From: Chitinophagales bacterium
GTDB taxonomy: Bacteria; Bacteroidota; Bacteroidia; Chitinophagales; CAVYQA01
Direction of reading: 5' to 3'
Length of the DNA: 64,000 nucleotides
Assembly (NCBI GenBank): GCA_963770495.1
Contig: CAVYQA010000002.1
Span: 16,955 to 80,954 of the forward strand
Below are positions 14,404 through 22,227 of this stretch, in pieces; the first letter of the stretch is position 1, and every line of letters begins with the position of its first letter. The notes under the pieces are model-generated. The model was not told the origin of the DNA, did no database searches, and saw nothing but the letters and a program-made list of their open reading frames with translations. The position numbers and the translations under genes were made by a program.

Positions 14404-15387
14404 ATGCCGTCAACCATTAAAACAATAGGCGTGTTCACCTCTGGCGGTGATGCGCCGGGAATGAATGCAGCCCTGCGCGCCGTGGTGCGCTCGGCTGTTT
14501 ATTATGGCGTTAAAGTGTATGGTATCCGGCGGGGTTACGACGGAATGATAGACGGCGATTTTATTGAAATGGCTGCAACGGATGTGAGCAACATCATACA
14601 ACGGGGCGGCACCATTTTAAAAACCTCGCGCTGCGAGCGTTTTAAAACGGCGGAAGGCATGGCTGCCGCTTACAGGCAGGTGGCGGCGCGCGGCATTGAG
14701 GGGCTGGTTGCCCTCGGCGGCGACGGCACGTTCAGGGGCGGGCTTGAGTTTGAACAAAAATATGCTATACCGATGATTGGTATACCCTGCACCATTGATA
14801 ACGACCTTTTCGGCATTGATTATACCATTGGGTTTGACACGGCGATAAACACCGCTTTAGACGCCATTGATAAAATCCGCGACACGGCTGATGCGCACAA
14901 CCGTTTATTTTTTATTGAGGTGATGGGACGCGATGCGGGATTTATTGCCATATACAGCGGTATTGCGGGCGGCGCGGAAGCCATACTGGTTCCCGAAACG
15001 AAAACAGATATAACTGCAGTTATATCCGCTCTTGAAAGGGGCTGGAACAGGAAAAAATCATCGTCAATAGTGGTGGTGGCAGAGGGTGAATATGAAGGCG
15101 GCGCTTTTGAAGTGGCTAGAAAAGTGAAAGAAAAATTTACGCATTACGACACGCGCGTGTCGGTGATAGGGCATATGCAGCGCGGCGGAAGCCCCTCCTG
15201 CATGGACAGGGTGCTGGCAAGCCAGCTCGGCGTGGCGGCAGTGGAGCATTTGTTAAATGGCGAACGGAATAAAATGGTGGGAAAATTACACCGCTCTATT
15301 GAACTTACCCCCTTTGAAAATGCCACTAAACATAACGTAGATATTAACCCCCAGATGCTGAAGATAGCTGAGATACTTTCGACGTAA
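14404..15387 (+). CDS. pfkA: ATP-dependent 6-phosphofructokinase
   Basis: GVFTSGGDAPGMNAA, GGDGTF, PCTIDND, MGRDAGF, GHMQRGG motifs. Confidence 0.95.
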   Translation: MPSTIKTIGVFTSGGDAPGMNAALRAVVRSAVYYGVKVYGIRRGYDGMIDGDFIEMAATDVSNIIQRGGTILKTSRCERFKTAEGMAAAYRQVAARGIEGLVALGGDGTFRGGLEFEQKYAIPMIGIPCTIDNDLFGIDYTIGFDTAINTALDAIDKIRDTADAHNRLFFIEVMGRDAGFIAIYSGIAGGAEAILVPETKTDITAVISALERGWNRKKSSSIVVVAEGEYEGGAFEVARKVKEKFTHYDTRVSVIGHMQRGGSPSCMDRVLASQLGVAAVEHLLNGERNKMVGKLHRSIELTPFENATKHNVDINPQMLKIAEILST

Positions 15388-17250: not shown

Positions 17251-17304
17251 AAAAGTGATTTTATGGAATACAAATTTATAAGAACTTTGGTTCTGTAAAA
17301 ATAA

Positions 17305-17389
17305 TTGCCGTTAGTTTTAACTGCACTTGCCGTCAGTTTTAACTACTTGCCGTCAGTTTTAACTACTTGCCGTCAGTTTTAACTGACGG
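17305..17389 (+). repeat. REP array, 4 tandem units of ~20 bp ending in the palindrome ccgtcagttttaactgacgg
   Basis: Units ttgccgtcagttttaactac start at 17327, 17347 and 17367 (degenerate copy at 17305). Terminal 9-bp stem 17370-17378 / 17381-17389. Confidence 0.85.
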
Positions 17390-17416
17390 ATAATAAAAGC
17401 AGCACAACCTAAGGCT

Positions 17417-17863
17417 TTAGCCCAAAACATTGCTTTCAAATTTTTCCCATCCATACTTTATTCTAAACTCCTCTATTTCTTCAGCAAATGTCTTTTTTCT
17501 GTGATGTTCTTCCTGTGCATTAATATATTTCCTTATCCTCTCAACTTGTGATTGCCCGATAGAAACAGCGAAATAATCATCCTGCCAATTTATTTTCTCT
17601 TTACACATTCCGCTTTCATTTAACCAATGTGCCGATTCACCTTTTAATAAGTGCATTGTTTTTGCAATTGTTTGTTCTTTATCCAATGAAAACAAACAAT
17701 GTACGTGATCTGTGTATCCGTTTACCACATCTATCCAAATTCCTTTGCTCCTTCCATAATTAATAATATGAGTGTATAAACTCGTTCTGATTTCTTTAGT
17801 CAGCATTGGTTGCCTGTTTTTAGTAGACCATACAGCGTGTATCCAAACTGTTACATAAGACAT
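17417..17863 (-). CDS. REP-associated tyrosine transposase (RAYT; IS200-like Y1 HUH transposase)
   Basis: VWSTKNRQP, HUH motif DHVHCLF, C-terminal YINAQEEHH (catalytic Tyr region). 148 aa, flanked by REP arrays. Confidence 0.85.
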   Translation of the reverse strand: MSYVTVWIHAVWSTKNRQPMLTKEIRTSLYTHIINYGRSKGIWIDVVNGYTDHVHCLFSLDKEQTIAKTMHLLKGESAHWLNESGMCKEKINWQDDYFAVSIGQSQVERIRKYINAQEEHHRKKTFAEEIEEFRIKYGWEKFESNVLG

Positions 17864-17917
17864 AAATTTCAGTTTTTGTTTGGGGGCTAAAGCCTAAAAT
17901 TATTATAATTTCTGTTC

Positions 17918-17984
17918 CCGTCAGTTAAAACTGACGGCAATTTCAGTTAAAACTGACGGCAATTTCTGCTCAAGCAAACGGCAA
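17918..17984 (-). repeat. REP array, about 3 units of 22 bp, inverted relative to the left array
   Basis: cccgtcagttaaaactgacggcaa, tttcagttaaaactgacggcaa, and a degenerate tttctgctcaagcaaacggcaa. Confidence 0.85.
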
Positions 17985-18017
17985 TTAAATGTTCTGAAAC
18001 AGGGGGGATTATTTCAA

Positions 18018-18401: not shown

Positions 18402-18937
18402 TGGTATCAATTTAGCATTAAACACAAATAAAGCGTTTACACTAAGACAATAGTTACATAAATTATGCCACAAGATAGTAATATTTTATAATAAATGTAA
18501 TACCCAATTATGAACCGATGTTACAAAGTGTAGCAAATACTGAACGGCAGGGTTTAATTGCAGAAAGGTAAAAAGTTTTAAAAGTGACGCGACTATTTTT
18601 ATGGTTTACACATTTTTATTTATTTATTTGTTGCTCAACAAATTACAACAAACCGGTAAACCATCATTCTTGACGTTTTCCTGACAAAGTAAACCGAAAA
18701 TAAATGGTAAATAAAGTCAGAACAATTACTTTTTACCGTACAAAATTTTCAAAGAACGATCTTAGAAAACAAAATTAGTGATATAAGTAATACCGTTAGA
18801 AAAGTTGGGACAAGAAGTTTTAGAATAAAAGAATATGGCTTTAAGTGAAAATGGGTTCGGGGTGGGGAAGGAATATTCACGGTAATAAAGTTGCCGGGTA
18901 GTTTTTTATTCATCCAAAAAATAGTTATTTTGCTCTT

Positions 18938-19306
18938 ATGAGAAAAGACCAGAAACATAACCTGGATTATTTAAAGCAGCGTCGCCGTGATTTACGTAAA
19001 CGCCTCACGCCGGCAGAAGCCACTCTTTGGAAACAATTGCAGAATCGTAAATTAAATAACAGAAAATTCACCAAACAACACAGCATAGAAAACTTTATTG
19101 TTGATTTTTATTGTTCTGAAGAAAAATTGGTAATTGAATTAGATGGGTAAGGACACAATAATTTGGGACAGGTGAATTATGATGAAGAACGCGATAACAG
19201 GTTACAGAAATTAGGTTTTAAAGTTTTACGGTTTGAGAATAAACTTGTTTTTGATAATTTGGATTATGTGCTAATGAGTATTTGCGCCTGTTTTAAATTC
19301 ACTTAA
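18938..19306 (+). pseudogene. DUF559 (Vsr-like endonuclease domain) gene with an in-frame TAA at 19148-19150
   Basis: LTPAEATLWKQLQNRKL...FIVDFYCSEEKLVIELDG*GH...ERDNRLQKLGFKVLRFEN. The same frame continues to the TAA at 19304-19306. Confidence 0.8.
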
Positions 19307-19325
19307 ACTATCATTACACACCCAA

Positions 19326-19472
19326 CTCCCCTCCTGTTTTTAGGAGGGGACAGAGCGATGAGCGCAGCCGGGAGGTTTTTTTTAATTAAATAATATTAGC
19401 TGATTTTTTTAACAGACTTGACCTCCCCGGCTCCCCGCAAAGCTTAGCCCCCTCCTAAAAACAGGAGGGGAG
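19326..19472. repeat. ~147-bp foldback element with two GC-rich hairpins in opposite orientation
   Basis: tcccctcctgtttttaggagggga (19327-19350) and cccctcctaaaaacaggagggg (19449-19470) are reverse complements. Inner arms gccgggaggt / acctccccggc, with an AT-rich centre. Confidence 0.7.
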
Positions 19473-19571
19473 CTTTAAGGTCAGTGTGTTTTTCAATTGC
19501 CGCGCCTGTTAAGGCGCGGTGAAATAATAAAAGAATAAGGGCTTTAGGTGAAAATGGGGTTGGGGGTGAGG

Positions 19572-20122: not shown

Positions 20123-20797
20123 ATGAGTAAAAGTGATAAACTCAATCAACTCTTTGAAAAATGGCAAAAGGTTAACCCCGCCTATGAAGAAAATTTTAGG
20201 TATGACGGAATAATCAATGAAGACTGTTATGAAAAAGCAAAACATAAAATTCTATTTATTTGTAAAGAACCTAATGGTAAAAACCATGAAGGGCATATAG
20301 GTGATTTCAGAAAGGAATGGAATGAAGAAGGGGCACAATACCCTTTTTCATATAGAATTGCTGAATGGTCATACGGTATTTTGAATAATTTTCCTTATTT
20401 AGATAATATTTACAATTCTGAAAATTGGGAAATTCCTTATAAAAATGCTTTGCGCTCCATTGCATTTATGAATCTGAAAAAAAGTGCCGGTAAAGGAACA
20501 TCAGAGTATTCTACTATGATAAAAGTCTTAGAGAATAGAGAAGAGAAAAAATATATACTTGATGAAATAAAAATTATTGATCCTGAAATAATTATTTTAG
20601 GTTTAACATGGAAAGAATTAAGCATTGAATTGATTAATGATATTGAATGGACTAACTCAGGGTATCAAATACTAATTGGCAAATGGGGGAAAAGAAAGGT
20701 TATAAATTTTTATCACCCATCATCGCGGAATGCACCATCAGCTGCATATTCATTGTTACAAAACATAGTTAGATCAAAAGAGTTTATTAATCTTTAA
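20123..20797 (+). CDS. hypothetical protein with uracil-DNA-glycosylase-superfamily-like motifs
   Basis: KILFICKEPNG (compare motif 1, GxxPG), SIAFMNLKKS (compare family-4 TNxVK), VINFYHPSSRN (compare HPSPRN/HPSPL motif 2). The order and spacing are plausible for the UDG fold. Confidence 0.55.
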   Translation: MSKSDKLNQLFEKWQKVNPAYEENFRYDGIINEDCYEKAKHKILFICKEPNGKNHEGHIGDFRKEWNEEGAQYPFSYRIAEWSYGILNNFPYLDNIYNSENWEIPYKNALRSIAFMNLKKSAGKGTSEYSTMIKVLENREEKKYILDEIKIIDPEIIILGLTWKELSIELINDIEWTNSGYQILIGKWGKRKVINFYHPSSRNAPSAAYSLLQNIVRSKEFINL

Positions 20798-20852: not shown

Positions 20853-21962
20853 TTAGTCTCCTGTTTCTTTTTCTTTCCAAATTGAAGTTGAGTATCCTGT
20901 TTTACCATCAATTAAAGGAAGTCTTTTAGTAAATGCTTCTTCAGGATTGAATATTGCTTCTTGTTGCATTATAAAATTAATAAGATGAATTGAAATTGGA
21001 ACACCGAGTGCAATTCTAATTTTGATTAAAATTTGTCCAATATAAATAATGTCATTTAACCAGTCTACCGCTTCTTCTAGTGTAATAACAAGAGTAGGTG
21101 GGTCAAAATGATTAAGATGATTTCTTAAAGTCTTTAATTTATTAAGTTTAGGTAGTTCGGCATCAATATCCAAATTGTTGCCTGTAATTTGATACACCCA
21201 ATGCAATTTATCTTTTAATCTCCTATTGTTTCTATCACCAAGTTTTTCTTTGTCAAAAATATTCCACCCCTTTTCTGGTGCGTACTTTGCCTTTATGTAA
21301 ATCTGAATAAGTGTTATTTCAAGAAGAGAAATTGAGTCATTAATTAGAGCTCTTAAATCTAAAATCCATTCAGGTTTTAGGCAATTTTCCGAATTCTCAA
21401 TTAGTAATTTTCTCTCTCTAATAATCCTCTTTATAAGTTGTGGTTGGAACGTTGTAAAAATGTGCCCTTCACGGTCCAATTTCGGTATTATAGGATATTT
21501 ATTTCCATATTGCATTTGAGGGGTTCCATCAACAACAAACACCGCTTCTTTATTTTTATCTTCGAAAAAATGGTAGTTTATACTTAGGTCTAAAGATATG
21601 TCAAGCCAAAAACACTCCATAGAAGGAAGATTAAATTTTAATGGCTCAAATTCTCCATCGTCCTTAAGTGTTTTAGTAAATAAAAGATAATTTATGTTTT
21701 TAGATTCAAGAGTTTCCTTTGTTTTAGGATGTTGCCATTTTATACGATAGTTATTATTGTCCTTTTTCCATTGCTTGCTTGTTTGTCTTATTTCTTTTAA
21801 ATAAAAGCTCGTTAAAATTTTTGCGGCGTGAGTTAGGAATCCGGTTATAGGTTTGCCAGTAAACAAAATATATTTATGATTGGGATCCCGTTCATATCCT
21901 TGTTGTCTTAATGCTGATAAAAGTTTACCATCCATATTAAGAATAAATTTCTCATTACTCAT
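20853..21962 (-). CDS. hypothetical protein, helical C-terminal half with a HEPN-like R-x4-H motif
   Basis: KLKTLRNHLNHFDPP (R-N-x3-H) sits in a predicted all-alpha C-terminal half. The N-terminal ~200 aa is unassigned. Very AT-rich. Confidence 0.5.
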   Translation of the reverse strand: MSNEKFILNMDGKLLSALRQQGYERDPNHKYILFTGKPITGFLTHAAKILTSFYLKEIRQTSKQWKKDNNNYRIKWQHPKTKETLESKNINYLLFTKTLKDDGEFEPLKFNLPSMECFWLDISLDLSINYHFFEDKNKEAVFVVDGTPQMQYGNKYPIIPKLDREGHIFTTFQPQLIKRIIRERKLLIENSENCLKPEWILDLRALINDSISLLEITLIQIYIKAKYAPEKGWNIFDKEKLGDRNNRRLKDKLHWVYQITGNNLDIDAELPKLNKLKTLRNHLNHFDPPTLVITLEEAVDWLNDIIYIGQILIKIRIALGVPISIHLINFIMQQEAIFNPEEAFTKRLPLIDGKTGYSTSIWKEKETGD

Positions 21963-22227
21963 TGGAATTGATTTTAAATTAAAATATGCCCCTTTTGGTT
22001 TTTAATCATTTACATTCTATCATAAATATAAAATTTTATTATCTATAATCAATATGCCGTGTCGCGTATCTCACACCCCGCGCCCAAAAAAGCTGTCCCA
22101 ACTTCTCGCACAGTGTAACTTCTAAAAGTAATTTTGTAAATCGTTCTTTGAAATGCTGTTTAGTTAAAGGTAGCCTTGCCACCCTCTAACTCCCTAAAGG
22201 GAGAACCGCTCCGCTCACCACAAACCC

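Follow-up and report, generated by a model that had tools for sequence, protein, structure and literature searches.

What does the 369-amino-acid protein encoded in the AT-rich part of contig CAVYQA010000002.1, from a Chitinophagales bacterium, do? We analyzed a 64,000-nucleotide stretch of this contig (the window; gene positions are given in its numbering). An earlier note made without database searches, which we call the sequence-only reading, had described the protein as an orphan with a HEPN-like motif and had suggested that it could be an abortive-infection-type effector. We find that it is a member of an unnamed family that comprises at least 300 sequence clusters, mainly from Bacteroidota. 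We consider it moderately likely that the family, which seems to be mobile and is most common in Bacteroidota, consists of self-regulated, single-protein HEPN ribonucleases (RNases) that are used in defense. The features on which the argument turns are the following, with the basis for each in parentheses.

20853..21962, minus strand: complete gene for a 369-amino-acid, two-domain protein (list of open reading frames, full-length alignment, AlphaFold2 model)
21453..21962, minus strand: N-terminal domain, residues 1-170, mixed alpha/beta (AlphaFold2, conservation, no library match)
20928..21446, minus strand: C-terminal HEPN-like helical domain, residues 173-345 (AlphaFold2, Foldseek, sub-threshold matches to HEPN_Apea)
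21096..21125, minus strand: RNHLNHFDPP motif (translation, conservation, definition of HEPN in PMC3710099)

The open reading frame (ORF) starts with ATG, and its beginning (MSN-EKF) is common to 32 homologues that align over the full length. As the sequence-only reading had claimed, the protein contains an R-x4-H motif with asparagine directly after the arginine: the codons at 21096..21125 translate to RNHLNHFDPP, and RNHLNH corresponds to residues 280-285. HEPN domains are defined by Rx4-6H with a polar residue (N, D, or H) after the arginine, at the end of helix 3 (PMC3710099), and both the spacing and the polar residue agree with this definition. By itself, the motif is weak evidence because Rx4H is found in 31% of unrelated proteins of similar size (RNxxxH is found in 4 of 407, or 1%). 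The motif is more than a chance occurrence because it is invariant across homologues. Specifically, R280, N281, H282, H285, F286, D287, P288, and P289 are invariant in 33 close homologues, and the pattern RN[HQD]xxH[FWLYM][DN]PP is present in 209 of 241 family sequences. The members without it are mostly short fragments; of the three long sequences among them, two appear to be frameshifted. In a set of 93 diverse full-length members, conservation is 100% at R280 and N281 and 96% at H285; R280 and N281 also do not vary among 138 members with 24-50% identity. A motif that varied among homologues, which the sequence-only reading would have taken as a refutation, is not what we see.

The same conservation bears on whether the domain is catalytically silent and serves instead as a regulator or sensor that binds nucleotides or RNA. 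Some HEPN families are indeed non-catalytic, but those families typically lose Rx4-6H (PMC3710099), whereas this family retains all three residues at the levels just given. We consider a silent domain very improbable.

The predicted structure places the motif where a HEPN domain would have it. For the full protein with the family alignment, AlphaFold2 (AF2) gave a predicted local distance difference test score (pLDDT) of 89.2 and a predicted TM-score (pTM) of 0.88; for the C-terminal domain alone, the pLDDT was 95.1. The model shows mixed alpha/beta structure for residues 1-170 and a helical domain for residues 173-331. The all-helical C-terminal half that had been predicted from the sequence is thus seen in the model, whereas the N-terminal part, which had been described as about 200 beta-rich residues, is instead about 170 residues with mixed alpha/beta structure. 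The helices of the C-terminal domain span residues 173-189, 197-227 (H1), 249-260 (H2), 270-284 (H3), and 295-319 (H4). H3 runs into R280..H285, followed by a loop (285-294) and then by the long H4, which puts the motif at the end of helix 3, in line with the description in PMC3710099. Two residues in H2, D251 and K252, are invariant or nearly so. The N-terminal domain has its own invariant or near-invariant residues (H29, C117, W119, D121, H131, P157, P160, R164, E165, and G166), and it has no match in Pfam, NCBIfam, PADLOC, the Protein Data Bank (PDB), or the BFVD.

When the C-terminal domain was compared to the PDB with Foldseek, a TM-score above 0.5 was reached by HEPN proteins exclusively. 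The top match was HepT (6m6w_G), with TM-scores of 0.55 normalized by the query (TMq) and 0.72 normalized by the target (TMt), a root mean square deviation (rmsd) of 3.3 Å, and a probability of 0.98. HepT chains overall had probabilities of 0.96-0.98, TMq of 0.49-0.55, TMt of 0.62-0.72, and rmsd of 3.3-3.6 Å, over about 146 columns. The further HEPN matches were 5yep and 7bxo, then AF_0298 (2hsb) and HI0074 (1jog), with Csm6 and AbiV lower. The non-HEPN matches had TM-scores of 0.37 or less and rmsd of 7-20 Å. The AF2 model and the Foldseek matches agree on a four-helix up-down bundle, as in HEPN domains. A Foldseek search against the viral structures of BFVD gave no match.

There is also a faint link at the level of sequence. 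Of 138 diverse members that were scanned singly at a permissive threshold, 16 matched HEPN_Apea (PF18739), with a best E value of 0.0036; one member matched HEPN_Cthe2314, and each unrelated family was matched by at most two members. Both of the HEPN_Apea matches that we inspected extend from RRxxDKLxW (helix 2) through RNHLxHFDPP, or positions 54-100 of the 136 in the profile, and score 12.7-14.4 bits, versus a gathering score of 24.4. Because every score is below the curated cutoff, we view this as a remote relationship to HEPN_Apea and not as membership. (HEPN_Apea corresponds to the ApeA-BMEI1217 family of Anantharaman et al. 2013.) Ten distant members had no match in Pfam or PADLOC at E ≤ 10. 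A member from Leptospira, which was found with a profile search using the C-terminal domain, is named "ApeA N-terminal domain-containing protein" (UniRef100_A0ABN0HEG0), and this label was not reproduced with Pfam. ApeA_NTD1 (PF18862) describes an N-terminal region of about 300 amino acids that is mostly beta and has conserved aromatic residues; neither the target protein nor any of the 138 members had a match to it, or to any other Pfam family, in the N-terminal region at E ≤ 10. Overall, the invariant motif, its position at the end of helix 3, the fold matches, and the weak matches to HEPN_Apea uphold the proposed HEPN assignment, and the C-terminal domain very likely has the HEPN fold.

The protein is not an orphan, as had been thought. 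A word-indexed search of 5.8 billion proteins identified 92 homologues at E ≤ 1e-47, all of them unnamed and none with a Pfam domain, and an exhaustive HMMER scan of 1.84 billion representatives at 50% identity identified 164 relatives, including 97 at E ≤ 1e-30. Among 185,579 species genomes (one genome per species), we found 38 loci. These are phylogenetically patchy and span several phyla: most are in Bacteroidota (Flavobacterium, Pedobacter, Mucilaginibacter, Spirosoma, Chitinophagaceae, and Saprospiraceae), and the rest are scattered over Myxococcota, Desulfomonilaceae, Acidobacteriota, Nostoc, and other groups. In IMG/VR, a single contig contains a homologue. In the window, the GC content is 0.29-0.31 at 20-22 kb and about 0.40-0.44 in the flanks. 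The patchy spread of the family and this low-GC island point to horizontal transfer.

The low-GC segment is bounded by an inverted repeat, as the sequence-only reading had noted:

18747..18812, plus strand: left arm of the inverted repeat (repeat search, alignment of the arms, uniqueness in the window)
22094..22153, minus strand: right arm of the inverted repeat, about 130 nucleotides upstream of the start codon of the HEPN gene

The arms are imperfect (about 66 nucleotides, 78% identical, with one 6-nucleotide indel), enclose the AT-rich segment, and have no further copy within the window. Also inside the segment are genes for a 142-amino-acid membrane protein and a 224-amino-acid protein that resembles uracil-DNA glycosylase (UDG). 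This raises the question of whether the three genes form a cassette that is mobilized with the segment. The three genes also occur together, with identical sequence, on an independent short contig (L051). With that exception, neither the membrane protein nor the UDG-like protein has a homologue at any of 55 other loci of the family, and even homologues that are 66-67% identical have other neighbors, such as a Fic or thioredoxin-like gene. The UDG-like protein has a large independent family of its own. Furthermore, the HEPN gene is convergent with the 224-amino-acid ORF (20123..20797, plus strand), as had been reported for the neighboring pair, so it is not cotranscribed with the pair. The idea of a three-gene cassette is largely refuted, and we give it hardly any credence. 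By the sequence-only reading's own standard, which was co-localization of homologues, the multi-gene idea falls; the HEPN assignment is unaffected.

Nor did we find any other partner. All-against-all clustering of the neighbors at 41 non-redundant loci did not identify a conserved neighbor. There was no conserved small ORF, and flanking DNA was not conserved across 34 loci. There were no tandem repeats near the gene and no match to Rfam. Because a conserved neighbor, a small ORF, conserved flanking non-coding sequence, a tandem repeat, and an Rfam RNA are all missing from these results, we consider the gene to be a single-gene unit, which excludes the classical type II or type III toxin-antitoxin (TA) layout. 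Both a TA pair and the three-gene cassette were rejected after the searches for a partner gene, a small ORF, or an RNA all came back negative.

If the gene acts alone, its contexts may hint at its role. One member lies in a prophage, in a moron-like slot between the genes for portal and TerL and on the opposite strand from them. Two members directly adjoin type ISP and MmeI-type restriction-modification (RM) enzymes, another is 88 nucleotides upstream of a type I HsdM, and another adjoins nSTAND, DACNV, and SMC_N genes. Genes for CBASS, mads, PDC-S31, ArdC, and resolvase are also found among the immediate neighbors. This association of the family with defense genes is suggestive. In the prophage just mentioned, a gene for a 175-amino-acid protein of unknown function (L005, 9106-9633) comes directly after the family member and shares its strand, so that the insertion between portal and TerL contains two genes; the second gene is not conserved at other loci.

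The most informative context is a fusion. In the protein P0176 (L057, 8001-9959; also L058), which occurs on six contigs, a type I HsdS with two target recognition domains (TRDs) is fused to the C-terminal domain of the family. The family part begins at about residue 177 and its motif is intact; HsdS replaces the entire N-terminal domain. The gene overlaps hsdM, which is upstream, and the Gabija genes gajA and gajB are downstream. No hsdR was found within the 14 kb examined around it. Because of this fusion, the HEPN module must be separable from its usual N-terminal domain. The arrangement recalls PrrC, a HEPN anticodon nuclease that is tied to type I RM. Given the prophage moron, the RM enzymes, and the HsdS::HEPN fusion beside Gabija, an abortive-infection (Abi)-type or other defense role is plausible.

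By analogy with ApeA, HepT, PrrC, and DARNA, such a protein might work as follows. Two HEPN domains would dimerize, and together they would make up a composite RNase site that needs no metal and leaves 2',3'-cyclic phosphate ends, as in HEPN RNases. The conserved N-terminal domain, as a putative sensor or auto-inhibitory module, would hold the enzyme inactive until it senses a cue that derives from infection. Once activated, the enzyme would cut cellular RNA or phage RNA, and this cleavage would stop the propagation of the phage via abortive infection or growth arrest. The most common target of such HEPN enzymes is the anticodon loop of tRNA. A more specific proposal, which we advance tentatively and would not expect to hold in every part, is that the family is a compact single-gene anti-phage system in which a previously undescribed alpha/beta domain of about 170 amino acids senses a cue of infection and unleashes an Apea/HepT-like HEPN RNase, and that the RNase is a portable module that can alternatively be wired to type I HsdS, similarly to PrrC but on another scaffold.

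Several results count against the idea that this is a HEPN RNase of the defense kind, and they fall into two groups. The first group concerns the fold. No Foldseek match in the PDB reached E ≤ 0.001 (the best were 0.31-0.47), and four-helix bundles are easily matched. The target protein itself has no match in Pfam, NCBIfam, or PADLOC at E ≤ 1, and no member of the family reaches the curated Pfam cutoff of any HEPN family. When the profile of the C-terminal domain was compared with hhalign to the full-length Ec1 and Ec2 ApeA proteins from E. coli genomes, the probability was about 0.1%. One way to account for these results is that the resemblance of the C-terminal helical bundle to HEPN is superficial and that RNHxxHFDPP is a structural or ligand-binding motif with an unrelated function. 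Neither the full-length alignment nor that of the C-terminal domain found anything relevant in sequence-profile searches of the PDB, which fits this explanation, as do Foldseek E values that are all above 0.3 and Pfam HEPN matches that are all under the curated threshold. But a lookalike would not be expected to match HEPN proteins, and no others, at TM-scores above 0.5, or to leave non-HEPN proteins so far behind; and the 16 sub-threshold matches are independent, involve one HEPN family, and cover the catalytic core. A lookalike therefore seems improbable. The Foldseek check that the sequence-only reading had called for came out in favor of HEPN, even though its E values are not significant; the support for the fold comes from the TM-scores, the probabilities, and the specificity of the list of matches, not from the E values.

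The second group concerns the role. We found no homologue in INPHARED phages or PLSDB plasmids (using tblastn), and at many loci, including the window, the only neighbors are housekeeping genes, such as those for valyl-tRNA synthetase (ValRS), methylmalonyl-CoA mutase, MutS2, trehalose synthase, and Ogt. The protein could then be a genuine HEPN RNase that is not involved in defense: it might be a stress-induced toxin, an enzyme for RNA processing or turnover, or an addiction module that stabilizes a mobile element. HEPN domains are also found in RNA processing (PMC3710099), and besides the placement of the gene between housekeeping genes at many loci, ValRS is an immediate neighbor at two unrelated loci. 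However, the distribution of the family is very patchy, which is consistent with horizontal transfer; the copy in the window is within a low-GC island; members are found as a prophage moron and beside RM and Gabija genes; and there is no conserved partner that resembles an antitoxin. We consider a non-defense role unlikely, if less so than a HEPN lookalike, and we favor a self-regulated HEPN RNase that is used in defense.

Two recurring neighbors deserve mention. First, ValRS is immediately upstream of the family member in Flavipsychrobacter and in Chloracidobacterium (L026, 5161-7800; L036, 3798-6710). This adjacency in two unrelated genomes may be a coincidence. Second, an orthologue of pfkA is 2.6 kb from the homologue in two metagenome-assembled genomes from Bacteroidia (L018; L037, 4385-5388). 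The window's pfkA (14404-15387) is 5.4 kb from the HEPN gene, and no other flanking gene is shared with these two loci. The vicinity of pfkA may be a shared integration hot spot.

The surroundings of the gene in the window include other repeats and remnants. Both arms of the inverted repeat are about 125-130 nucleotides upstream of genes that face inward: on one side the HEPN gene, and on the other the remnant of a gene for a DUF559 (Vsr-like endonuclease) protein, of which a 70-amino-acid N-terminal part remains at 18938-19150. The arms could be the terminal repeats of a cassette without a transposase, or else a duplicated regulatory region. Direct repeats of about 40 nucleotides (18824-18862 and 19526-19565) bracket the DUF559 fragment, and a hairpin with 47-nucleotide arms (19326-19472) follows it; the region from 18824 to 19565 looks like a decayed gene amid repeat elements. 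Farther away, the region 17288-18001 contains a gene for an IS200-like Y1 transposase (17417-17863, minus strand; PF01797, E = 1.5e-27). Arrays of a palindromic unit of about 22 nucleotides, TTGCCGTCAGTTTTAACTGACGGCAA, lie in inverted orientation on both sides of the transposase, an arrangement that resembles a REP-associated tyrosine transposase (RAYT) accompanied by its clusters of repetitive extragenic palindromes (REP) and bacterial interspersed mosaic elements (BIMEs). Ogt is among the housekeeping-type neighbors of the window copy. Finally, the 224-amino-acid neighbor (20123-20797, plus strand) contains the UDG-like motifs ILFICKEPNG and NFYHPSSRN. It has no match in Pfam, NCBIfam, or PADLOC, and it belongs to a separate family of at least 198 proteins, chiefly from Bacteroidota, one of which is called "Uracil-DNA glycosylase" in UniRef. 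It might be a divergent or defense-type glycosylase.

If the defense reading is confirmed, then a compact and mostly Bacteroidota single-protein HEPN defense would join the group of ApeA, DARNA, and PrrC. The family is missed by the current annotation models of PADLOC, Pfam, and NCBIfam. Since its N-terminal domain has no detectable relatives, that domain would be a new candidate for a sensor of infection, again if the defense reading is confirmed. The natural HsdS::HEPN fusion offers a ready comparison for how HEPN nucleases stay latent. Because self-regulated HEPN RNases are a well-established concept in abortive infection, the advance would be incremental.

How does the protein compare to known systems? 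Single-protein HEPN defense is established for ApeA and DARNA. ApeA acts against phages as a single HEPN protein (Gao et al. 2020; Juozapaitis et al. 2026, bioRxiv 10.64898/2026.01.26.701840; Drobysheva et al. 2026, bioRxiv 10.64898/2026.03.20.713152). Like ApeA, the protein is encoded by a single gene with no partner and has an N-terminal region followed by a C-terminal HEPN domain with R-N-x3-H (RTRNLIVH in Ec2ApeA and KVRNKITH in Ec1ApeA, versus LRNHLNH here). Both are found at moron positions in prophages, and HepT is the top structural match to both HEPN domains (for ApeA, as its authors report). HEPN_Apea is the sole Pfam family that our family matches recurrently. The ApeA family has been noted within RM operons, and several members of our family are in similar settings. 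However, our family is about 340-370 amino acids long, versus 580-600 for ApeA; the protein has two domains, versus three in ApeA (N, Mid, and a split HEPN with insertions); its N-terminal domain is alpha/beta, while that of ApeA is predominantly helical; and it is not detected by PADLOC. The profile search of the PDB, which includes the ApeA chains 9hxb-9hxn, did not find ApeA, and ApeA chains are not in either of the Foldseek top-50 lists. In both homology and architecture, then, the protein differs from the three-domain, roughly 580-amino-acid ApeA of the E. coli type (Ec1-Ec4ApeA). As to the annotation of ApeA itself, the validated Ec2ApeA (structures 9hxb-9hxi) is annotated as "hypothetical protein" in E. 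coli JNQH497 (L049, 2605-4356), where it lies in a P2-like prophage between the baseplate V and virion-morphogenesis genes, and no Pfam model matched either Ec1 or Ec2 ApeA.

The closest structural match is HepT of the MntA-HepT system, a HEPN-MNT TA system (5YEP, 6M6W, 7BXO, and 7AE8). Both proteins have an LRNxxxH core that is followed by helix 4: GLRNIAVHDYQELNLDIV in HepT versus TLRNHLNHFDPPTLVITL in our protein. (The HepT fragments for this comparison are actual PDB sequences that were retrieved with a DUF86-like probe.) They differ in that HepT is a minimal HEPN of about 130 amino acids, whereas our protein has an additional N-terminal domain of 170 amino acids, and in that HepT has the tyrosine of HxY, which is AMPylated, where our protein has HFD. 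Also, HepT is neutralized by an adjacent MNT nucleotidyltransferase antitoxin, whereas our family has no MNT and no conserved neighbor; there is no nucleotidyltransferase among the 25 most common Pfam families of 144 immediate neighbors.

PrrC and RloC are HEPN anticodon nucleases at type I RM loci, and our family also places a putative HEPN nuclease beside RM systems: one member is fused to HsdS after hsdM, and another is just upstream of HsdM. Apparently, an RM complex can stand in for the N-terminal regulator that the family usually has. In contrast to PrrC and RloC, which have an N-terminal ABC-ATPase-like domain, our family has none, and most of its members are outside RM loci.

DARNA (PD-T7-3), AbiV, and Abi2 (AbiD/F) also combine a HEPN RNase and a sensor domain on one polypeptide. 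In DARNA, tRNA anticodon loops are cleaved once a cue from infection activates it. DARNA has its HEPN domain at the N terminus and a helical C-terminal domain, which is the reverse of the order here. AbiV is a weak structural match in Foldseek, but AbiV typically lacks the histidine of the motif (PMC3710099). The PADLOC models for DARNA, AbiV, and Abi2 fail to match our protein. We rejected DARNA as its identity, given the reversed domain order and the lack of a PADLOC match. In type III TA systems, for example those with an AbiF-like HEPN, a tandem-repeat locus for an RNA antitoxin adjoins the toxin gene, and no tandem array is found near our gene.

Overall, by the features that define them, the protein falls outside HEPN_Apea, ApeA, and HEPN-MNT, and it lacks an ABC-ATPase domain. 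By analogy, it would be a one-polypeptide combination of a sensor and a HEPN RNase, as in ApeA, with a core that is most like HepT, and with HEPN_Apea as its nearest relative by sequence.

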